Shown: one piece after another, positions 3,330 to 41,883 of the stretch
Layout of the letters: every line of letters begins with the position of its first letter
Numbering within the stretch: the first letter of the stretch is position 1
Source: Escherichia phage ECML-606-1
DNA length: 64,000 nt
Sequence record: OL631484.1
Direction: 5' to 3' (one strand)
Program-made: the position numbers and the translations under genes
The notes under the pieces: generated by a model
Databases searched by the model: none
What the model was told of the DNA's origin: nothing
The model's input: only the letters and a program-made list of their open reading frames with translations

Positions 3330-3605
3330 ATGCTGACTAAAGCACAAATCGTGGAACACATCGCCAAAGAGCAGAATATCACCAAGTCACAGGCTGAGCG
3401 CTTTTACAGCTGCTTCACCCAGCTGGTGACTGATACCCTGAAAGCTGGCGAAGAAGTAAAACTGAATGGCGTCGGCACGCTGAAAGTGGCTGCGCGTGCA
3501 GCTCGTACCGTGCGCAATCCGGCTACTGGTGCCCCTCTGGATATCCCGGAAACCCGTACCGTGAAGTTTTCTGTAACCAAAGACCTGAAAGACGCGCTGA
3601 ATTAA
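3330..3605 (+). CDS. HU/IHF-family histone-like DNA-binding protein
   Basis: 91 aa; N-terminal MLTKAQIVEHIA, GVGTLKV...RNPATG...FSV arm typical of HU/IHF (bacterial DNA-binding protein fold); followed by an intrinsic terminator. Confidence 0.85.
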   Translation: MLTKAQIVEHIAKEQNITKSQAERFYSCFTQLVTDTLKAGEEVKLNGVGTLKVAARAARTVRNPATGAPLDIPETRTVKFSVTKDLKDALN

Positions 3606-3636
3606 TCAGCACCCTATTACAAAAGGATTCCCTGAT

Positions 3637-3666
3637 AAAAGGCCCGTTACAGGGCCTTTTCTTTCT
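3637..3666 (+). terminator. Rho-independent terminator after HU gene
   Basis: GC hairpin GGCCC-gttaca-GGGCC followed by TTTTCTTTCT. Confidence 0.6.
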
Positions 3667-3676
3667 GGAGGTATCA

Positions 3677-4042: not shown

Positions 4043-5093
4043 GGGCGGGCCTCAGGTCATGCGTCTGTTTGGCTACGCGGGAACTGGGAAAACGACCGTT
4101 GCCAAAGCTATCGCTGAGGAGGTCAAAGGCACCGTACTGTTTGGCGCGTTCACGGGGAAAGCCTCGCTGGTCATGCGTAAGAAGGGCTGCACCAATGCCA
4201 GCACGCTGCACAGCCTGATCTATATGCAGGATGAAGACGCGCCTCCGGGCCCGCATCCTAAGTTTATTCTTAACCCTGAAAGCTCCCTTCGTTACAGTCG
4301 CCTGCTGATTGTCGATGAATGCTCAATGGTCGGCCCTGATCTCGGCGCTGACCTCCTCAGCTTTCATCGTAAAATTCTGGTGCTGGGCGATCCGGCGCAG
4401 CTCCAGCCAGTCAACGGAGAGGGCTTTTTCTGCGCTCCCGGCGTCCAGCCTGACATCATGCTCACAGAGGTTCATCGTTCGGCGGCTGAATCGCCTATCA
4501 TCCGGTTGTCTATGGACTTGCGCGAGGGGCGTCGCCTCCAGTACGGCACCTATGGTGACAGCTGCATCATTGAGCGCAAGCACCTCGGACAGCGCCGCGT
4601 GCTGGAATCTGACATCGTGCTTTGCGGCATGAATAAAACCCGCATCAACCTCAATGAGAAGATCAGGAAGCTGAAAGGGGTTGAGAGCCCATTCCCGGTG
4701 GCTGGCGATAAGCTGATTTGCCTCAAAAACGACAAAGAGCTCCAGATGTACAACGGCTCGATCTGGACAGCGAAGCACGCCGCAGAGCCAGACCGGAACG
4801 GGCTGGTAATGCTCACAGTTGAGACCGAAGACGATCCGACCGTTGATTACCCGGTTGAGGTCATGGTACCGGAGAAATTCTTTCTGGGCCGCGAGAAAGA
4901 GCTCCACTGGACTGAGTTGCAGGGCATCCAGCAGATGTACTACGGCAACGCGATCACCTGCCATAAAGCGCAGGGCTCAGAGTGGGAGCATGTTGTGATA
5001 TTCGACGAGGGCGGGATCTTTAAACAGGATGCGTGGCGCTGGCGGTATACGGCGATTACACGCGCCAGCGAGCGGTTTACCTATATTATGTGA
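3942..5093 (+). CDS. Dda/RecD-like superfamily 1 DNA helicase
   Basis: Walker A GYAGTGKTT, Walker B LLIVDECSMV, C-terminal ITCHKAQGSEWEHV and YTAITRA motifs characteristic of RecD/Dda-type helicases; alternative start ATG at 3981 has a better RBS (GGGAGA). Confidence 0.8.
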   Translation: MNTASIFVSREITMQFTQTQGSAIQQVAKWANSKGGPQVMRLFGYAGTGKTTVAKAIAEEVKGTVLFGAFTGKASLVMRKKGCTNASTLHSLIYMQDEDAPPGPHPKFILNPESSLRYSRLLIVDECSMVGPDLGADLLSFHRKILVLGDPAQLQPVNGEGFFCAPGVQPDIMLTEVHRSAAESPIIRLSMDLREGRRLQYGTYGDSCIIERKHLGQRRVLESDIVLCGMNKTRINLNEKIRKLKGVESPFPVAGDKLICLKNDKELQMYNGSIWTAKHAAEPDRNGLVMLTVETEDDPTVDYPVEVMVPEKFFLGREKELHWTELQGIQQMYYGNAITCHKAQGSEWEHVVIFDEGGIFKQDAWRWRYTAITRASERFTYIM

Positions 5094-5357
5094 TTACATG
5101 CCTTGGCTGGCTATCCAGTCAGCCTTATTCTTGTCCCGCGTGGCACAATCGCCGTACATGCCTAACAGGTCAGAATATGCCTTATACAGCGTCCCCATGT
5201 TTTCTCCGGGGTCGAGGTCTACGGCAGGGCAGGTAACGCGCAGCGATTCGCTCATGTGTGGCTTGGCCTGATCAACGACAACCTGCGTCGCCGGGCGAGG
5301 CTTATCGCTACAACCAGCGATAAAAGTCAGGGCGGCCACCAGCATCAGTTTTTTCAT
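5094..5357 (-). CDS. o-spanin (Rz1-like outer-membrane lipoprotein)
   Basis: Signal peptide plus lipobox (LTFIAGC), short Pro/Cys-containing mature part; start overlaps stop of upstream i-spanin (ATGA); last gene of lysis cassette. Confidence 0.6.
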   Translation of the reverse strand: MKKLMLVAALTFIAGCSDKPRPATQVVVDQAKPHMSESLRVTCPAVDLDPGENMGTLYKAYSDLLGMYGDCATRDKNKADWIASQGM

Positions 5358-31275: not shown

Positions 31276-32808
31276 TTATTCGCCAGTATGCGGACGCCAT
31301 TTTGCCTGAGTAGGCAGAATGTTTTTGATGTAGCCATGGTGTTTCGGCTTGGTAATACGCAGATAACCAAACAGGAACTGGAACCATGACATTACAGGCA
31401 TCCCGCCTACACCGAATGGCAGAGGGATCTTGGTCATCGGTTGGAACTGACGCCAGCCGATTGCATCCGCGCCAGCGCCAAGGTTCAGCATTGGTACACA
31501 GATGGTGCCCGGCAGAGTGCGGTTGTCGTCGTGGAACTTGGTCTTACCACCAGCGGAGCTAGAGGTATCAATTTTCACGTAACCGACCAGACGCATATCG
31601 CGCAGGGTGTCCAGATCATCAGCAGCTTTCGCCACGTCCTGACGACCACGATAGATGGCGAAGCCGCCGCAATCAGTGGATGCCGGGTTGGTGATGGACA
31701 GCACGATTTCTTCGCCAGAGGCAACAGTAACCTGATCCACGATCACCGCTTCGGACAGGCCAGCGCCGGAGGTGCTGATACCTGCGATAGCGTAGACGTA
31801 CTTACCAGCACGTTTGCCAGTGAAGCGAGCCGCGCCGTTGGTAGCCGCTGCGCCAGTTGTCGCGCCCGGTTTCAGTGCGGAGTTTTTCGCCGCCAGATCC
31901 GGGTTGGTCAGCTGGAACACATGCACCATCGGGTTGGTCTCGTCATGGATAAAGGTATCCATGTGAGTTTTCAGGATGCCAGTAGTCAGGCGGATCCCGT
32001 TAACATGACCACCGATAGTTGGTGTGTTCTGGCCTTCTGGCATCCAGCGGAATGCTGGATCTAAGCCCATGTTCAGATCGTTCTGAACAGAGTTAGGCAG
32101 GAAGATATCGGTTGACTGGCCCCAGTTGCCGTAGGAGTTAACTTCTACGTTAATCTGAGACATCGGCTCAACGCTGTTCAGCGCGGTACCGTTCAGGTCA
32201 ACGATGTGCTCCGGTGCCATTTTCCCCGCAGCCACTTCTTTGTCGATCTGGGTAAAGATACCGTCAAACTGCGTACTAACAACGTCAGCGTTACCATGAT
32301 AAAGCAGGTAGTTGGCGTCGGTCAGCAGTTGCAGTGCGCCGTTACGTTCTTCGACCGCAATCGGCTCAGCGATGTTTTTACCGATGTTCAGGACATAGCC
32401 GACCTGACGCAGAGACATCAGGAATTTGACCAGACCTACTTCACGGCTGTATTCGCCCTGTGCGGCACGTACAACGCCCATCTGGGTGTTGGTAGAACCA
32501 CCAAGGAAACCACCGACAGATGACTGGCGGCTGTATTCGTCAACGATGTTGATCGCGTTGGACTGCTGCAACATGTTGAACAGCGTAAAGTGCTTGTTCT
32601 CCTGAATCGTGGTCTTCATCGCAGTATCAAGAGACTGCACGCCTAACGCGCCGCCGCCCTGCAATTTGCTCACGTCAGTCTGATAGTCCGAAGCCTGAAG
32701 CGCTTTGGTCAGCTCCTCAAACTGGGCCATATTACCGCCCAGAGAGCCGCCAAGAGCAGCTGCGCCGCCCGGCAATGCGTTCTGGAACAGTTGGGCGATG
32801 TTTTGCAT
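31276..32808 (-). CDS. major capsid protein
   Basis: 510 aa, strong RBS AGGAG, position after scaffold and before a strong terminator; N-terminal segment shared with upstream 294-aa protein. Confidence 0.65.
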   Translation of the reverse strand: MQNIAQLFQNALPGGAAALGGSLGGNMAQFEELTKALQASDYQTDVSKLQGGGALGVQSLDTAMKTTIQENKHFTLFNMLQQSNAINIVDEYSRQSSVGGFLGGSTNTQMGVVRAAQGEYSREVGLVKFLMSLRQVGYVLNIGKNIAEPIAVEERNGALQLLTDANYLLYHGNADVVSTQFDGIFTQIDKEVAAGKMAPEHIVDLNGTALNSVEPMSQINVEVNSYGNWGQSTDIFLPNSVQNDLNMGLDPAFRWMPEGQNTPTIGGHVNGIRLTTGILKTHMDTFIHDETNPMVHVFQLTNPDLAAKNSALKPGATTGAAATNGAARFTGKRAGKYVYAIAGISTSGAGLSEAVIVDQVTVASGEEIVLSITNPASTDCGGFAIYRGRQDVAKAADDLDTLRDMRLVGYVKIDTSSSAGGKTKFHDDNRTLPGTICVPMLNLGAGADAIGWRQFQPMTKIPLPFGVGGMPVMSWFQFLFGYLRITKPKHHGYIKNILPTQAKWRPHTGE

Positions 32809-35866: not shown

Positions 35867-37660
35867 TTACAGGTCGGGCAGACCAAACGATTTGTAGAGC
35901 CCTTCCTCGTCGAGGTTCTGCAATGTGTTATGCAGCTCATCGAATTTTTTCTTATTGTCGGCTTGCAGCTGCTCCTGCTCGGCCTGCTGCTGTGCAGCTG
36001 CGTCGGCGTCGTCAGGGTTGGCAGGATCAGCGCCCAGCTCCTCGCCCGGCTGCTGTAGCTCGGCCTGCTGCGCCATCTGCTCGGCCTGAATATCAGCGTT
36101 GACCTTAGCCATATAAGGCTGCATCGAAACGCTGTTAAGCGGGGAGTTGGCCCAGTCTTCTTTGATTTCTTCCCAGTTGCGAGCGCGGCGTGCTTCGTTG
36201 ACGGTAAGGAGCGTTTTCTCCTCGTCCCACGCCTGCTTCGGATCCTTCTCATCCAGACCTGTCCAGCGGAACACGTACTTATCTGAGAAGTCGGAAATGA
36301 TGTAATCGGTGAATAAGTCCTCAAAGTGCGACAGCAGCGGTCGCAGGCCCTTATCCTTCGAGTTGATCAGCTTCTCCTCCGTGTCACTGCCGGACAGCGA
36401 ACTGGTACCAGCAGTGAAGGATTCGAAGTTGATCTCGTCCGGGGCGATGCCATAAATAGCGCAGATGATCGCGGTTAAGAACGTCATCCATTTGGCAAAC
36501 ATGATCTCGTTAACGTCTACGCCAAAGTTTTCAAATTTCGCCGTGGATTCCGAAGTTTTGGAAACCATGACGGGCAATGTCCATGCGTTATTGATGCCCT
36601 TCACCATGCTATTCCAGTACCGCTTAAAGGAGTTGAGATCCTCGGTAGAATAGTCGCCGGAGAGATGGAGCAGACCTTTCGGGATGGCGTTCGAGTCGAA
36701 ATACTTCTGGTTGTACGTCATGGCGTTCAGGAAGCCCGTGACGGTGTTTACCAGCAGCTCAGTTTCGCTCATCCCGTAACCTCCGTTCAGCACATCGGTG
36801 CGGGTGTTGCGCGGAACATAGATCAGGTCGTTGTAGGTGTAAGCGGTGCGGATGTTCCCCTGCACCACCTGTAAAGCAAAAATCTCATCATCGCCCTTGT
36901 AGCCGTCCTCAGTACAGAGGCGGATCGTGGCACCATCGACGGCATAAAGCCCGTCCATGCCTAGCGAGCGGTTTTTCTTGAATTCGGTCTCAATCGGCGC
37001 GGAGTCCATCACCAGCGAGTCGCGCACCAGCTTGCTCATGAAGCCTGAGAAGTTATCGCGCTTGAGGCGAGCACGCACGCGGGGGTTACTCTCCCAGCCG
37101 CAGTTTTGCATGAACATTTGCAGCGCGTTGATGGAGTCCTGCTCAGGCTTCGCCAGCCGCTGTGAGCCATTCTGCTCTTTCAAGCGAATCTGGAAGCCGG
37201 GGCCCACGCCTTTCTCACTGGCGCGGCAGAAGCGTTTGATCTGGCGGATGCGGGTCATCACCACCGCCGACAGGATTGGCGTCTTGTCCACCATGTAGCG
37301 CATGGCATCAAAGCCAAAGTTTGTCGGACGCTCATACCAGTCTCCCAGAATCTGCACCTGACGGTCATCCAGCCAGACAGACTGCATACCTTCTTTCTTG
37401 CCCTCGCGGACAGCCTGAGAAGGGTAATCGACCAGTGTATTTTTCTGGAGGGACTTGTAAAATTCCTGATCAGCATATGACTGGGCAATATGCTGAATCA
37501 GCGGAGCCAGATCCGGCACGCTGGAAGGCATTGCAGCTTTCTGCGCTTGCGCCATCGCATCCTGCTGTTCGTCGGCAGGCGCGGCAGGGTTGTGCGCGGT
37601 TTGGATGGCGTTGTCAGACATACGGTTAACCTTTGCAAAGTAGTTCGCAGAGAGTGACAT
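35867..37660 (-). CDS. portal protein
   Basis: About 600 aa, located between terminase and MuF-like gene, acidic C-terminal tail; track start TTG 37678 lies inside the conserved GTCGTGATG motif so ATG 37660 or 37621 is more likely. Confidence 0.7.
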   Translation of the reverse strand: MSLSANYFAKVNRMSDNAIQTAHNPAAPADEQQDAMAQAQKAAMPSSVPDLAPLIQHIAQSYADQEFYKSLQKNTLVDYPSQAVREGKKEGMQSVWLDDRQVQILGDWYERPTNFGFDAMRYMVDKTPILSAVVMTRIRQIKRFCRASEKGVGPGFQIRLKEQNGSQRLAKPEQDSINALQMFMQNCGWESNPRVRARLKRDNFSGFMSKLVRDSLVMDSAPIETEFKKNRSLGMDGLYAVDGATIRLCTEDGYKGDDEIFALQVVQGNIRTAYTYNDLIYVPRNTRTDVLNGGYGMSETELLVNTVTGFLNAMTYNQKYFDSNAIPKGLLHLSGDYSTEDLNSFKRYWNSMVKGINNAWTLPVMVSKTSESTAKFENFGVDVNEIMFAKWMTFLTAIICAIYGIAPDEINFESFTAGTSSLSGSDTEEKLINSKDKGLRPLLSHFEDLFTDYIISDFSDKYVFRWTGLDEKDPKQAWDEEKTLLTVNEARRARNWEEIKEDWANSPLNSVSMQPYMAKVNADIQAEQMAQQAELQQPGEELGADPANPDDADAAAQQQAEQEQLQADNKKKFDELHNTLQNLDEEGLYKSFGLPDL

Positions 37661-37696
37661 CACGACATCACGACGCAAAATAATTTAAATACCCTC

Positions 37697-37725
37697 TTGC
37701 TATCATCTTTTTTGCGTGCTTTAAT
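37697..37725 (+). promoter_or_regulatory. putative sigma70-type promoter for the tRNA island
   Basis: TTGCTA -35, 17-bp spacer, TTTAAT -10, upstream of tRNA-like elements on + strand. Confidence 0.35.
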
Positions 37726-38168
37726 CCATCCCGTAGCGCTGATTGGGATGTCTTTCGAAATTGCGTTTTCATTTTCTGTCAATGTCAGTTATGGGACGGA
37801 AGACATCAACCAATGAGCGCTTGGCTTTGACTACTCAATACGGATTTGTCGTTATTTCGCGTATACGGTTGTCAAGTGCTCAGCCATGTTCTAACCCGCG
37901 CAGTATTGCTAAAGCCCAAGTGGGGCCGTCTTCAATACTCGCGGCAGTGAACGGCGAATGGCAAGCTACTGGCCTGACTTTCCTTCTTTCAAAGCAAAGA
38001 TTGAAGTGGGCGGCGTCGGCTCATTGAAACAACGGCGCAATCGGGTGAAAATCCCGTTCAAATTCTACCGATTAGTGACGATGAAAGGGGCCTTCGCGAT
38101 CCCCAAGTAATTGGCAGGTTGCCTTAGGTCACAAGCCGCAGCGGAGATTGCAAGCGAAGCTGTAGGAT

Positions 38169-38196
38169 AGAGGTTCGACTCCTCTGATCGGTGCCA
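38169..38196 (+). other. tRNA-like 3' module (T-arm plus acceptor 3' strand plus CCA) without canonical 5' half
   Basis: AGAGG-TTCGACT-CCTCT T-arm followed by GATCGGT-G-CCA; matching acceptor 5' strand only found about 120 nt upstream. Confidence 0.3.
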
Positions 38197-38338
38197 TTTT
38201 TGCGGTTACACAAGTGTGCAGATAGCATGACGAGGAAAGGCGTTCCGTGCGACGCTGGAGGCGATGGTAGGGTAAGCACCCTCTCCTATGACTCACGACT
38301 CAACCTCTCCGGGTAACGACCGGAGCCGCAAAACAGAT

Positions 38339-38462
38339 TGAAGCGTAGCTCATTGGCAGAGCAGCACACGGATGCGGATCCGCGCCAGCACAAGGCTCCT
38401 TCGGGGTGTGCCGCTGGCTCCAGAAGTGTATGTAACTGGTTCGATCCCAGTCGCTTCAACCA
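38339..38462 (+). other. oversized tRNA-like element (canonical acceptor, D-arm and T-arm but about 124 nt long)
   Basis: 5' TGAAGCG-TA-GCTC-ATTGGCA-GAGC and 3' ACTGG-TTCGATC-CCAGT-CGCTTCA-A-CCA pair as acceptor/D/T arms, but no standard anticodon arm; contains palindrome GCGGATCCGC and a UUCG-like hairpin. Confidence 0.3.
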
Positions 38463-38466
38463 TTTT

Positions 38467-38542
38467 GATTCTGTAGCTACAGCGGTAGAGCGGCGCACTG
38501 TTAATGCGCGGGTCGCTGGTTCGAATCCAGCCAGAATCGCCA
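38467..38542 (+). tRNA. tRNA-Asn (anticodon GTT)
   Basis: 76 nt cloverleaf: acceptor GATTCTG/CAGAATC, D-arm with GG, anticodon stem GCGCA/TGCGC with loop CTGTTAA, T-arm GCTGG-TTCGAAT-CCAGC, discriminator G and encoded CCA; close match to enterobacterial tRNA-Asn. Confidence 0.85.
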
Positions 38543-38707
38543 GAGTAATCATGGGTTGGTTACAAGCCTGTCAGAAGGCAATCCCGCCCCGGCTTCTCCT
38601 CAGGTCGCCGGGGCACCTTCCCAGAATTAAGGGCAGTCCCTTACTTCTGCGTCGGTAAGAGCGGAGAATCAGGAAATTTCGACCGTAGTACCAAAACATT
38701 GCTTCCT

Positions 38708-38733
38708 TGCCGCCCCCGTGGGCGGCTTTTTTT
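38708..38733 (+). terminator. Rho-independent terminator after tRNA island
   Basis: GCCGCCC-ccgt-GGGCGGC hairpin followed by T8. Confidence 0.6.
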
Positions 38734-38751
38734 TAGCCTGAGGAGTAACCC

Positions 38752-39267
38752 ATGAATATCTTTCGCCGCATCCTGAATAAAATCTTTGGCATCCCACCAG
38801 TGCCACCAGAGCCGAAGATCGAGCCGCCAAAGTTCGGCGGTGATTTCCCGCGCCCGGTCTCCGTCACCATGAAGGCTACCCAGACCGTCAAGCAGGATCC
38901 GATGGCTGCGGCGGTCGCCCGTGCAAAAAGGGACGCGGAGAAAACTGCCGTAAAAGGCAACGTCAGCAGCGCGAGCAGCAGCTCAACACAGCGCCCATTT
39001 ATATCCCTGTTAGATCCGACTCATCCGCTCTATCCTTTTAATGGCGTGCGGGATGATGATGCAGCCACTCAGCACCGCGTACAGCATCAGGACGCGACGA
39101 CGATCAGCGATACCACGCACCGACACGTCGCCAGCCATTCTGAGCCAGTGCGTAGCCATAGCTCGCACAGCAGCAGCCATTCAAGCCCAAGCTATGACCA
39201 TAGCCCCAGCCATGACAGCAGCCCATCCTATGACAGCTCACCGTCACACCACGACAGCAGCTGGTAA
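38752..39267 (+). CDS. small protein with His/Ser-rich low-complexity C-terminus
   Basis: RBS GAGGAG; Pro-rich N-terminus, C-terminal SHSSHSSSHSSPSYDHSPSHDSSPSYDSSPSHHDSS repeats. Confidence 0.4.
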   Translation: MNIFRRILNKIFGIPPVPPEPKIEPPKFGGDFPRPVSVTMKATQTVKQDPMAAAVARAKRDAEKTAVKGNVSSASSSSTQRPFISLLDPTHPLYPFNGVRDDDAATQHRVQHQDATTISDTTHRHVASHSEPVRSHSSHSSSHSSPSYDHSPSHDSSPSYDSSPSHHDSSW

Positions 39268-41883
39268 TTAATCGTCACCTTTCGAAATGAAGCCGGAGCA
39301 GCCAATATCCTCCGGCTTCACCTGCATCATGATCTCATGGCAGGATCTGGTCTCCGGGTCGTAGTTCACACAGCGCCCGCAAACATCCCCGCGATACTTC
39401 ACGTTGTTCACCTCATCCATGTAGCTCACCAGCGTCTGATCGACGCCGATATCCAGCGGGCTCAGTCGCTCGATCTTCACCTGCGGGGCATCCGGCAGAA
39501 TAAACGTACTGGTGCCATGGGCGCGACTCCATGCGACATCGCACAGCAGGTTTGCGTAGGAGAAGTGGGGATCGATGCCGATTTTCTTCACGCTGCGCTT
39601 GTACTGGTTCGTTTCCTCGTCCTTCTCAGCCACCAGCGCCGTTTTGGTGAAGTGCGTGAACATTACCGGGGCCACGGCTTCCACGCGCGTGACGCCCTTC
39701 TCACGAATCTCCTGCACCAACCCCTGAGGGTCTGGGATGAGGCAGATTGGCTCGTCGGCAGTGAAGCGGGCCATTGAGACCTGCATACACTTATACTGGT
39801 CAATGCGGACGGTGTAGCGATCCTGTTCGTTCTCGTCGGTGCGCACATCGGACTTGTCCAGCTTCATGCTGTCATTCCACTGGATCATGCCATCCGCCAC
39901 GGTGCCGAAGCTGTTACAGATGAATACCCGGCCTTTGTGACGGTTGGCGAAGCGCTTGGCGTCGTTGTAGTTCGGGTTGATTTCCACCACGCAGCAAGCC
40001 ACGCCGTACTGGTTCATCAGCTCGCTACAGCGGGCAAACGGATCCTCGCTGTAAATCATTTCGATGTGGACAATTGCTTGGTGGCCGGAGGGCAGTCGCT
40101 CCTTGATAACCACCACGTTAAACTGGCCCATCTGGTCAATACCCATGTAGCAGTTATCCGCGCGGGACTTCCACTGCACGCCAAAACGCAGGCCATGCTT
40201 AACGCAATTCGCCAGGTGTTCCAGCGTTACCGGAACCAGCGACGGATCGAGGAACGGCTTGCCCAGCTTACGGTTATAGAAGTTTTTCATATCCGTAGCG
40301 TTGTTGAAGGCGGAAATAATCTCGCCGGGGCTGATTGTCGGTGACAGGAACTGCGGGAAGTGCGCCGACCGGATGCACATTTCCCCTTCCTCATTCTCCG
40401 GCGCATCCGGGATCCATTCCCCGCGCTGCGTGTCCTCAATCCATCCTCCGCAGCTGTAGCAGACATATCGGTGGCGTCTGGTGTCCGGGTCGTACTTAAT
40501 GCACTGCGGGAAATAGTCATCCAGCGGTTTCTTTTCGAGGCAGTGCGGGCATTCGGTATGGAAACGGTACTGGGATCCCAGCTTGTACCAGTGGTGGATA
40601 TCGGAGTCGGGCCAGTTGGCGGTGGAGCCCATCAGGCTGTAACGGATCGGGGATGCAGATAGACGCTCGCGCGTTTTCTCCATCTGCTCCAGTGACATTT
40701 CCTGCACCTCATCGAAGCTCAGGACATCCATCGGGATGGATTCGGTAGTCGCGCGGCCCGATGTCCAGCTGAATACAAACATCGCCTCACCGATGCGACG
40801 GGTACGCACGTTACCCTCACCTTTCTTGCGACCGCCGCCTTTCTCATCGTCCTGCACCATCAGCGCATGTACCTCAGGTACGGTGCGCACAATCGGCATG
40901 AAGCGCTCGGAGGACTTGATCCCCGCCAGCGCGGCATCCGGCAAGAACATGCCGATAGTCATCGGCTGGAAGCGCAGGCCAAGGTAAATAACAGCGAGCA
41001 TTTCCATGACGGTAAAGCCCACCTGCGCACACTTCATCAGCACCAGCGTTTTGCGGTATGCCTCCTCGACGGTGCTGGGGATCTGGTCATAAATCCACGC
41101 CATCGCCGGGCGGTTGTCCAGCTTGAACGGGCGACCATCCACTTTGAGGCCCGTTTCGCCCAGCCGGATGCACCACTCCAGAAAGGTCTCGTTTGGCTTG
41201 AGGATTTTCTGCGAGGCGGTCAGGACAAAGGTCGTATCGAGGAATTCAGCATCGTAGCGCTGGCGCTTCTCATCCCCGGTCGTGTTGTCCATTTTCTCCA
41301 GGAATGCCGCGTCGAGATTATGGCGGTTGGTCTCGGTCGGCACGCGGCGTCGGAACCAGTCAGGATCCAGCTCGGCCTCCATCCACAGGCGATAAAAGTC
41401 GTGATTCTTCCCGTAGGCACCGGACAGGAACCATGCACTGCCGTGGTACTCGCGCAGGCACTCAGCCAGCGTGTCACCCCAGATCTGCATGAAGTTGTAA
41501 ATCTCGCGCACGTCATCAATGATCATCAGGCCATACTGCCCATTAACCTCTTTCAGGCTGTCAGCCGCGTAAAGGTCAATGTACTGGCCCGATAGCAGCG
41601 TGATGCGCCTGCTGGTTGAGCTCTTGATGAGGGGATCGATGGCCTGTACGATCCGCGTGCGAACCTCCATAAGGTCTTTGTACGTAGCGCTCATCCACAT
41701 CGCCGGGGCAGGGTTATTCATGATGCCCTGTTTCCCAGCCACCAGCGCCTCTATGCCAAGCGTTGTTTTTCCTGCCTTCTCGCCCATGGCAATAACGTTA
41801 AAACGCGCCGCACGGTCGATACAGACCTGCAACGCGTCATTGAGAATGGGCAGCTTAATTTTAACGGTCTTTTGGCGTGCCAT
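39268..41883 (-). CDS. terminase large subunit, GpA (lambda A)-like, with about 250-aa N-terminal P-loop extension
   Basis: Internal KCAQVGFT (cf. lambda gpA KSARVGYS), zinc-finger-like FHTECPHC...YVCYSCGG, C-terminal nuclease-like region; additional N-terminal Walker A GEKAGKTT and Walker B-like LMIIDD. Confidence 0.75.
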   Translation of the reverse strand: MARQKTVKIKLPILNDALQVCIDRAARFNVIAMGEKAGKTTLGIEALVAGKQGIMNNPAPAMWMSATYKDLMEVRTRIVQAIDPLIKSSTSRRITLLSGQYIDLYAADSLKEVNGQYGLMIIDDVREIYNFMQIWGDTLAECLREYHGSAWFLSGAYGKNHDFYRLWMEAELDPDWFRRRVPTETNRHNLDAAFLEKMDNTTGDEKRQRYDAEFLDTTFVLTASQKILKPNETFLEWCIRLGETGLKVDGRPFKLDNRPAMAWIYDQIPSTVEEAYRKTLVLMKCAQVGFTVMEMLAVIYLGLRFQPMTIGMFLPDAALAGIKSSERFMPIVRTVPEVHALMVQDDEKGGGRKKGEGNVRTRRIGEAMFVFSWTSGRATTESIPMDVLSFDEVQEMSLEQMEKTRERLSASPIRYSLMGSTANWPDSDIHHWYKLGSQYRFHTECPHCLEKKPLDDYFPQCIKYDPDTRRHRYVCYSCGGWIEDTQRGEWIPDAPENEEGEMCIRSAHFPQFLSPTISPGEIISAFNNATDMKNFYNRKLGKPFLDPSLVPVTLEHLANCVKHGLRFGVQWKSRADNCYMGIDQMGQFNVVVIKERLPSGHQAIVHIEMIYSEDPFARCSELMNQYGVACCVVEINPNYNDAKRFANRHKGRVFICNSFGTVADGMIQWNDSMKLDKSDVRTDENEQDRYTVRIDQYKCMQVSMARFTADEPICLIPDPQGLVQEIREKGVTRVEAVAPVMFTHFTKTALVAEKDEETNQYKRSVKKIGIDPHFSYANLLCDVAWSRAHGTSTFILPDAPQVKIERLSPLDIGVDQTLVSYMDEVNNVKYRGDVCGRCVNYDPETRSCHEIMMQVKPEDIGCSGFISKGDD

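Follow-up and report, generated by a model that had tools for sequence, protein, structure and literature searches.

Three tandem tRNA-framed elements without an anticodon arm in Escherichia phage ECML-606-1, one of them housing a pseudoknotted core conserved in several phage lineages

The window analysed here, 64,000 nucleotides (nt) of Escherichia phage ECML-606-1 (sequence record OL631484.1), is a myovirus structural module, as seen from PHROG and Pfam scans of its open reading frames (ORFs), sheath, baseplate and tail-fibre genes included. In the gap between its portal and terminase genes there is about 1 kb without a credible ORF (37.7-38.74 kb), on the strand opposite to both, and in it, at 38067-38462, three tandem elements with the outer frame of a transfer RNA (tRNA) stand on one strand directly 5′ of a tRNA-Asn gene. 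They are termed A, C and B in the order in which they occur, and what they may be is the subject of this account.

38067-38196, plus strand: element A, 130 nt (strict scan and a covariance model from Ackermannviridae)
38199-38335, plus strand: element C, about 134-137 nt (covariance model from other phages)
38339-38462, plus strand: element B, 124 nt (strict scan, minimum free energy (MFE) fold and tRNA-frame model)
38467-38542, plus strand: canonical tRNA-Asn (GUU), starting 4 nt past the CCA of B (ARAGORN; Rfam RF00005, 61.5 bits)

The array is tight, with A separated from C by 2 nt, C from B by about 6 nt and B from tRNA-Asn by 4 nt. How often would such closures turn up by chance? A strict scan, demanding a T stem of 5 base pairs (bp), a T[TG][CA][GA]ANN loop and an adjoining 7-nt strand that pairs perfectly (at most one G·U) 60-220 nt upstream, was run on both strands of the window (128 kb) and returned only 38067-38192 (followed by GCCA), 38339-38458 (followed by ACCA) and tRNA-Asn; 30 shuffles gave a mean of 0.1 hits. 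A and B have a canonical 7-bp acceptor, 5-bp T stem, TTCRANN loop, discriminator and CCA, and C has an 8-bp closing helix and a 5-bp hairpin. An initial annotation of this DNA had described two elements, ending at about 38196 and 38462, with T-arms, 3′ acceptor strands and CCA, upstream of a bona fide tRNA-Asn. All of these are there, and both elements are real; what was overlooked is the 5′ acceptor strand that belongs to A and the third closed element, C, between them. Its view that the elements are tRNA-like and lack a canonical anticodon arm was right. ARAGORN at its default setting and Rfam, both at the gathering threshold and at an expectation value (E) of up to 10, call tRNA-Asn and leave A, B and C uncalled, which confirms that the elements have no standard anticodon arm. 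RF00005 matches none of the three even at E≤10, and the 5-bp anticodon stem with a 7-nt loop containing U33 is missing from them. The search with Rfam covariance models, which that annotation had proposed as a check, therefore returned nothing for A, C or B.

Element A is closed by an acceptor helix, ACCGATT (38067-38073) with GATCGGT (38186-38192), and the perfect 5′ strand makes it a closed 130-nt unit. Its T-arm is AGAGG TTCGACT CCTCT (38169-38185), its end is G73 and CCA (38194-38196), and in its interior are a second helix, GTGAC/GTCAC, and hairpins GGGG..CCCC and GGCA..TGCC. BLAST with A finds the identical relative only. A-like elements of 126 nt, first noticed by eye and afterwards picked up with a pattern search, are present in at least 12 Ackermannviridae genomes and share with A the AAAGGGG...CCC sequence, the hairpin GGTTGCCT, the T-arm GGTTCGACTCC and the NCCA end, while the differences in the acceptor and second helices are compensated. 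The full set of features that marks an A-like element (acceptor helix, second long helix, AAAGGGG and GGTTGCCT hairpins, GGTTCGACTCC T-arm, NCCA) is found in A. In the Ackermannviridae the similarity of the flanks stops precisely at the first acceptor base on one side and directly behind the CCA on the other, as is expected for a discrete module. A covariance model made from 10 Ackermannviridae A-like sequences only, with a hand-drawn structure, has a single match in the window, 38067-38196 from end to end (18.2 bits, E=0.0011), and on that showing A is accepted, with some reserve, as a homologue of the Ackermannviridae elements.

Element B has the acceptor TGAAGCG (38339-38345) with CGCTTCA (38452-38458), A73, CCA at 38460-38462, the D-arm GCTC/GAGC (38348-38362) and the T-arm ACTGG TTCGATC CCAGT (38435-38451). 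Inspection of the sequence and the strict scan alike bear out what had been said of it: a 124-nt unit with a perfect 5′ acceptor strand and a D-arm, with the palindrome GCGGATCCGC at 38374-38383 and a cUUCGg-type hairpin at about 38395-38408. Its MFE fold is a cloverleaf in which a three-way junction replaces the anticodon arm, and the branched insert (38364-38429, 66 nt) consists of a stem GCAC/GUGU, a hairpin CGGAU-GCGG-AUCCG and a helix GCCAGC/GCUGGC with a UUCG-type hairpin as its cap. A tRNA-frame model, which describes an 85-nt Ackermannviridae tRNA-like element and allows a large insert in the anticodon region, scores B at 41.8 bits (E=3e-10) and true tRNAs at 42-54 bits; as it behaves as a general tRNA detector, the score indicates that B has a full tRNA frame and does not show specific kinship to the 85-nt element. 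The relatives of B found by BLAST are 100% identical only, and no relatives of its insert were found.

Element C has an acceptor-type closing helix (38199-38206 with 38325-38332; strands TTTGCGGT and GCCGCAAA), a short hairpin at the D position (about 38208-38219), a hairpin GGCGT/ACGCT (38239-38256), a helix P4 (38258-38261 with 38304-38307) and, at the T position, the hairpin TCCGG GTAACGA CCGGA (38308-38324). In a BLAST search of phage isolates, window positions 38214-38305 match about 36 Ackermannviridae (Vi01-like phages of Salmonella, Klebsiella and Escherichia coli) and Pectobacterium phage Amona with 78-82% identity, and all these matches are unannotated or lie under a short ‘hypothetical protein’. 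In both the Ackermannviridae and Amona the core is inside an acceptor-type helix and a canonical T-arm, e.g. GTCGG TTCGAAT CCGAC CACCGCAA in Vi01; the C-like units of the Ackermannviridae (about 36 isolates) are about 145 nt long, and in Amona (42 kb) the core, in a full frame, is directly 5′ of tRNA-Met. A covariance model built from four members, none from the window, gives 81.5 bits (E about 1e-19) for the copy in the window. Short ‘hypothetical protein’ coding sequences (CDSs) in GenBank overlie the element at 2293-2598 of the Amona locus and 1536-1634 of the Klebsiella phage HMGUkp5 locus, on strands that differ between phages; they are probably mis-annotations of an RNA gene.

How firm is the pairing of C? 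In a six-sequence alignment fitted to the model, which favours nested helices, 98.2% of the pair cells hold standard pairs and 19 of the 38 pairs have changed on both sides. None of 500 shuffles reaches what is observed, and when the partners are slid by 1-3 columns 32-47% are paired. A further helix makes a pseudoknot, spanning 38226-38297 on the plus strand: strand x (CATGA, 38226-38230), upstream of an invariant CGAGGAWAGG block, pairs with strand y (TCACG, 38293-38297), which is inside the loop enclosed by P4. This helix is absent from the model, yet it covaries, with G-C/C-G, C-G/G-C and A-U/U-A exchanges between lineages (three compensatory pairs); its pair 3 is U-A, A-U or C-G and its pair 2 G-C, C-G or U-A across lineages, and the window copy has one A·C mismatch. 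A continuation of the pseudoknot, GGAAAGG (38234-38240) with CCCTCTCC (38279-38286), is probable. About 45 positions outside the helices are invariant, namely ATAG, CGAGGRWAGG, GAY, CACC, GAC and CUCA.

The motif of the core (closing helix; ATAG-x5-CGAGGRWAGG; GGCGU/ACGCY; P4; GAY...CACC...; GAC-y5-NCUCA; x:y) is present in the window's C with all its helices, and a scan for the pattern covered viral contigs. In a contig of 78 kb and 61% GC the core is preceded by the closing helix GTGATGGT/ACCATCAC and, at the D position, by a GNRA hairpin; it has no T-arm and is 180 nt 5′ of a tRNA-Tyr (52.8 bits). In a 28-kb contig it is behind a bare 5-bp closing stem, with no tRNA in the 1.9-kb locus examined. 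With these two copies, two positions of the pseudoknot show a third type of base pair, P4 has compensatory changes along its whole length and the probable continuation of the pseudoknot has an A-U to G-C exchange; neither variant has a match among phage isolates. At least five phage lineages thus keep the core, with many compensatory changes in it, and since in some of them it is present without the tRNA frame, a circumstance also missed initially, the conserved unit is the pseudoknotted core and the tRNA frame is an optional housing for it. Identification of the core with a known ribozyme or riboswitch was tried by eye (a topology like that of hepatitis delta virus, the hammerhead CUGAUGA box, strings like those of the fluoride riboswitch) and rejected: the helices are in the wrong order, the boxes change from one lineage to the next and Rfam has no hit at E≤10.

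Enterobacter phage phiT5282EW (95.5 kb), every gene of which is annotated ‘hypothetical’, is about 94-97% identical to the window, and so is an IMG/VR contig of 95,985 nt. What becomes of the three elements among such relatives bears on their nature, and the segment concerned is the following.

38000-38463, plus strand: accessory segment with A, C and B (BLAST against a relative without the cassette)

Besides the window, phiT5282EW and IMG/VR contig 3300045988_109226 carry the cassette; it is absent from IMG/VR contig 3300011855_000001 (95,548 nt), the portal of which is 99% identical. BLAST of window positions 37681-38760 against the latter aligns only 37681-37999 (82.6%) and 38464-38760 (99.7%), and in place of 38000-38463 that contig has about 93 nt of unrelated long hairpin. 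With its flanks kept and A-C-B missing from a phage so close in its portal, the cassette is accessory, and an unrelated hairpin in the same slot makes the stretch that separates the upstream RNA from tRNA-Asn look like a position for variable cargo. The replacement hairpin (about 3580-3672 of the contig locus, reverse strand) has a stem of about 20 bp (TATATCAATCTGCTGG...CCAGCAGATTGATATA), and ACCGATT at the deletion junction could be a remnant either of the 5′ strand of A or of an ...ACCA-TTTT end. Between the window and phiT5282EW the cassette and the tail downstream of it show 2 differences in 700 nt, and both flanks are hypervariable. Related loci, 39 in number, were fetched via the portal protein, and 38 other related loci (288 kb) have no long tRNA-like closure.

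The remainder of the RNA operon, and the protein genes by which the locus was placed, are these.

37716-38064, plus strand: U, a structured non-coding region upstream of A in the same ORF-free operon (RNAalifold with phiT5282EW)
38543-38704, plus strand: operon tail, conserved and non-coding, with hairpins such as CCCCGGC..GCCGGGG (comparison with relatives)
38709-38734, plus strand: strong intrinsic terminator, GCCGCCC CCGT GGGCGGC then T8, which closes the RNA operon (terminator scan)
31279-32808, minus strand: major head protein (PHROG/Pfam)
35870-37678, minus strand: portal (PHROG/Pfam)
39271-41883, minus strand: large terminase (PHROG/Pfam)

For U, RNAalifold on the window and phiT5282EW gives 93 pairs, and in 8 of them the changes are compensatory. 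Positions 37716-37732 pair with about 37960-37976 in a long-range helix that encloses a multi-branched domain, and three hairpins come after it. That helix explains an invariant island in otherwise hypervariable sequence; a reading of the island (37953-37980, ANGKLLA*) as transfer-messenger RNA (tmRNA) was dropped, the island being the 3′ strand of the helix. Frame-breaking indels relative to phiT5282EW argue against a 94-amino-acid (aa) ORF at 37743-38027. U has no Rfam match, and it is kept in the phage without A-C-B (contig 3300011855_000001). The operon tail differs from phiT5282EW by 1 substitution and is 99.7% identical to contig 3300011855_000001; no ORF was found in it, and no Rfam family above noise. 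The sole protein gene sharing the strand of the RNA operon, 38752-39267, starts 18 nt past the T run of the terminator (38734). Its product, of 171 aa, is of low complexity and rich in Ser and His; it has a good ribosome-binding site, no family match and, compared with phiT5282EW, is hypervariable (49 differences in 200 nt). Elsewhere in the window, 53974-54411 (minus strand) encodes a 146-aa protein with a near-threshold match to a phage ProQ C-terminal-like domain (25.8 bits, the cut-off being 27). ProQ/FinO proteins bind structured small RNAs, and on its sequence this protein is a candidate partner of the small RNAs. A 2257-aa protein encoded at 46962-53732 (minus strand) has an ADP-ribosyltransferase exoenzyme domain at its C terminus (Pfam PF03496, E=5e-9) and may be injected to modify the host.

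What, then, are A, C and B? The reading preferred here, and thought fairly probable, is that they are three independent small non-coding RNA genes built on tRNA frames, an accessory cassette 5′ of tRNA-Asn in which the frame serves as a scaffold for release and stability and the insert is the effector. From the operon of about 1 kb a single precursor would be transcribed, with its end at the terminator (38709-38734). Each unit would offer an acceptor-type helix stacked on a T-position hairpin, with canonical T loops and an encoded CCA in addition in A and B; host ribonuclease P (RNase P) would cut each 5′ end, and host 3′ exonucleases, with the CCA-adding enzyme where needed, would finish the 3′ ends as for the neighbouring tRNA. 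The frame would then be the scaffold for release and stability, on which host factors that bind tRNA might also dock, and the domain that replaces the anticodon arm, in C the conserved pseudoknotted core, would be the working part. In engineered ‘tRNA scaffold’ RNAs a tRNA-like fold confers processing and stability on an unrelated functional RNA. Pre-tRNA dimers of T4, with similarly tight spacing, are cut by RNase P, and among the non-tRNA substrates of that enzyme are pre-tmRNA and the C4 antisense RNA of P1/P7 (PMC11143913). That the cassette is dispensable and exchanged between phages favours, over decoding, a part in host take-over or counter-defence, in which the RNAs would bind or titrate some component of the host or of a defence system. 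Decidedly more tentative is a further proposal, that the insert of C represents a previously undescribed class of pseudoknotted effector RNA, either a ligand- or protein-binding fold or a small ribozyme, which unrelated phages exchange horizontally and which in some lineages has been grafted onto a tRNA frame for release and stabilisation by the host's tRNA-maturation enzymes; A-C-B would then be a small arsenal for counter-defence or host take-over.

Several points count against the preferred reading. The folds of the elements are no more stable than those of shuffled sequences (MFE z = +0.22 for A, −0.47 for C and −1.27 for B). C encodes no CCA, and GTAACGA, the loop at its T position, does not qualify as a T-loop, so that its recognition by RNase P is less certain. 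The homology score of A is modest (18.2 bits). With no diverged relatives, the structure of B's insert comes from thermodynamics and is the least secure part of the picture, and B could be a recently disrupted tRNA. A Pfam and PHROG survey of the 49 window ORFs found no Ro, RtcB, RNA ligase or CCA-adding enzyme, and so no partner protein that would point to a pathway. A host- or defence-dependent role is put forward as a suggestion, the accessory distribution being the one observation from which the anti-defence idea is drawn.

Might A and B be genuine tRNAs with short introns or insertions, tRNA-Arg(UCG) for B and tRNA-Cys(GCA) for A, that decode once the insert is removed or tolerated? B has the full acceptor, D-arm, T-arm and CCA, and the intron mode of ARAGORN does call both, B at the default threshold as tRNA-Arg(tcg) with a 29-nt intron and A, at the lowered threshold -ps80, as tRNA-Cys(gca) with a 51-nt intron. 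These fits are, however, forced: the ‘introns’ are at position 31/32 rather than 37/38, and that of B needs a 24-nt variable region, leaves unpaired the 6-bp GCCAGC/GCUGGC helix that is the strongest of the insert and reads its anticodon from the cUUCGg hairpin. Bacteria are known to splice tRNA only via group I introns, of at least 200 nt with P1-P9, for which inserts of 29 and 51 nt are far too short, and no Intron_gpI or tRNA hit appears at E≤10. ARAGORN moreover gives unrelated ‘anticodons’ to similar Ackermannviridae elements, and what the relatives of A keep is the insert, not the anticodon loop; the notion of tRNAs with small insertions, which the initial annotation entertained, is accordingly highly improbable. 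The suggestion of decayed genes, functionless pseudogenes left from a once larger phage tRNA cluster, is unlikely, though less so than the other alternatives. A real tRNA adjoins, a near-identical phage does without the cassette, fold stabilities are not significant and B is without diverged homologues. Against it, A and C are conserved across virus families and unrelated phages, with changes that compensate each other and long single-stranded blocks that do not vary, by which it is contradicted for those two; in A and B acceptor helices, T-arms and CCA are perfect, where decay would strike at random; and there are those mere 2 differences in 700 nt to phiT5282EW between hypervariable flanks. 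That the elements are attP-type (phage attachment site) 3′ fragments of tRNA genes, another of the early suggestions, is contradicted: both acceptor strands are present, and E. coli chromosomes and plasmids matched tRNA-Asn only; that comparison used E. coli chromosomes, and the annotated host of the nearest relative is an Enterobacter sp. That any of A, C and B decodes, is a tRNA with an intron, has decayed to a pseudogene or is a fragment of an attP site has a low though not a zero probability.

Punctuation alone, in which tRNA-shaped cleavage signals free flanking RNAs or tRNA-Asn, would suit a tight array with a tRNA-like closure at every boundary and an enzyme, RNase P, that cuts many non-tRNA substrates (PMC11143913). 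But three signals of 124-137 nt (393 nt in total) are needless to free one tRNA, contig 3300011855_000001 manages without them, and C keeps about 45 invariant insert positions and a pseudoknot even in lineages without a tRNA frame. As the whole account this is decidedly unlikely, though the earlier thought of tRNA-like processing signals is probably correct in part: RNase P and 3′ maturation enzymes are most likely recruited by the frame, and it is the conserved inserts which suggest that the RNAs themselves are the product. Very unlikely, too, is that the elements mimic the tRNA domain of tmRNA and engage SmpB, alanyl-tRNA synthetase or ribosome rescue. The Ackermannviridae block with A-like and C-like elements also holds a tmRNA-type tag frame, with 21.3 bits, below threshold, for Rfam tmRNA_permuted, and a CDS-less tmRNA-like RNA of mycobacteriophage DS6A is reported to engage the rescue system (PMC11915505). 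In the window, however, tmRNA models (RF00023, RF04321 and the clan) have no hit in 37650-38760 at E≤10, the tmRNA mode of ARAGORN finds none, no G3·U70 pair is seen on inspection of A, B or C, no ORF is SmpB-like and the sole tag-like frame, ANGKLLA* (37956-37979), is the 3′ strand of the conserved long-range helix of U. Least probable of all, and by itself hardly credible, is that the elements are Y-RNA-like (YrlA-type) tRNA mimics tethering Ro60/Rsr to an exonuclease. Bacterial and phage Y RNAs mimic tRNA, according to the citation of Chen et al. 2014 in PMC12282133, but the two ends of YrlA pair into the stem that binds Ro, with the tRNA-like part distal to it, whereas here the ends form the acceptor helix; there is no hit to Rfam YrlA (RF02553) and no TROVE/Ro ORF among the 49 of the window, about 30 kb of phage genome lying outside it.

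With three independent tRNA-framed RNA genes as the preferred reading, the closest known analogues are RNAs C and D of T4 (rnaC, 139 nt, and rnaD, 119 nt; ‘species 1 and 2’), which are expressed and stable and still without an assigned function (PMC9697503, PMC3014915). Their genes close a tRNA cluster and share its strand, with gaps of 1-6 nt to the neighbours and a few nt from tRNA-Arg, and rnaC has a canonical T-arm (CCGGG TTCGAAT CCCGG), an acceptor-like closure and extra hairpins at the D and anticodon positions. A-C-B is of the same kind, in that its members are non-tRNA genes of about 120-140 nt in tandem with phage tRNAs and with a tRNA-like closure. There is, however, no homology: BLAST finds nothing, and the 15 bits (E=0.05) that the C model gives rnaC are explained by the shared T-arm. 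Nor are the T4 RNAs known to have the pseudoknotted core, and they form part of the core of T-even genomes, where A-C-B is an indel cassette. With the tRNA-like domain of tmRNA (two-piece and CDS-less forms, e.g. DS6A) the elements have in common an acceptor and T-arm without an anticodon arm, along with pseudoknots in the body, and tmRNA is matured by RNase P (PMC11915505, PMC11143913); they differ in having no G3·U70, tag frame or Rfam or ARAGORN tmRNA signal and in being far smaller (124-137 nt). YrlA is similar in being a small RNA with a tRNA-mimicking module and a second functional module, but its topology is the reverse, and there is neither a Ro gene among the window ORFs nor an Rfam hit. 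In the C4 antisense RNA of P1/P7 a tRNA-like fold gives precise 5′ processing and stability to an unrelated RNA (PMC11143913), which, as with the engineered scaffold RNAs, is an analogy of mechanism only, with no homology in sequence or structure.

The unannotated tRNA-like elements of the Ackermannviridae are not described families, and their genomic context is unlike that of A-C-B, being a large non-coding RNA block that holds a tmRNA-like tag frame and a gene for an HNH endonuclease. One more of these elements, 85 nt long and ‘tRNA-???’ to ARAGORN, shares with B the U1...A73-CCA frame and has the T-arm ACTGG TTCGAAT CCAGT; it does not have B's insert, and 11 nt beyond it comes a 150-nt element with a canonical T-arm. 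A tmRNA-type message segment is present at about 1787-1841 of the Salmonella phage Vi01 locus, at about 2343-2397 of the HMGUkp5 locus and also in locus L006. In Vi01 AUAAAUGCAAACGAUAA... / AUAAAUGCAAACGAUAAU...GCUUAA encodes ANDNTFLAVA*, and in HMGUkp5 ANDSEVLMAA* is encoded. Over the resume region the segment agrees with the Rfam tmRNA_permuted consensus at every base, at a sub-threshold 21 bits (21.3); it is not called by ARAGORN, and no mention of it was found in the literature searched. In Klebsiella and Agtrevirus phages the insertion of the HNH endonuclease gene (1829-2299 of the HMGUkp5 locus, 1911-2387 of L006) is a precise one, with a long hairpin on one side and the tag-like segment on the other; the gene is absent from Vi01, which has instead an insertion of about 290 nt with an A-like element, flanked by GACT...TAAA repeats. 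Ackermannviridae tRNA clusters end in further non-canonical tRNA-like genes, the 85-nt and 150-nt elements among them (L017, 4380-4468; L019, 4674-4762 and 4770-4920; L023, minus strand, 4985-5046 and 5087-5236; L026, minus strand), and one genome has a 62-nt element with a tmRNA-like T-loop (GGGTTCAACTCCC).

RNAs that have the shape of tRNA and do not decode have been known in phage tRNA clusters since the T4 work of the 1970s, and to our knowledge no one has assigned them a function. What the present comparison brings is a modular design, in which interchangeable frames (a plain stem, a stem with a hairpin, a full tRNA frame) surround one pseudoknotted core, so that ‘scaffold’ is separated from ‘payload’. 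The payloads move between unrelated phages: a 95-kb myophage of the phiT5282EW type, Ackermannviridae, a 42-kb Pectobacterium phage and high-GC uncultured phages. That such elements are called by neither ARAGORN nor Rfam, and that several are annotated as short hypothetical proteins, amounts to a blind spot of annotation. Near-isogenic natural phages with and without the cassette are an ideal start for a phenotype screen, and if C does prove to be a new class of effector RNA, it would give a first handle on the purpose of the 50-year-old T4 RNAs C and D.

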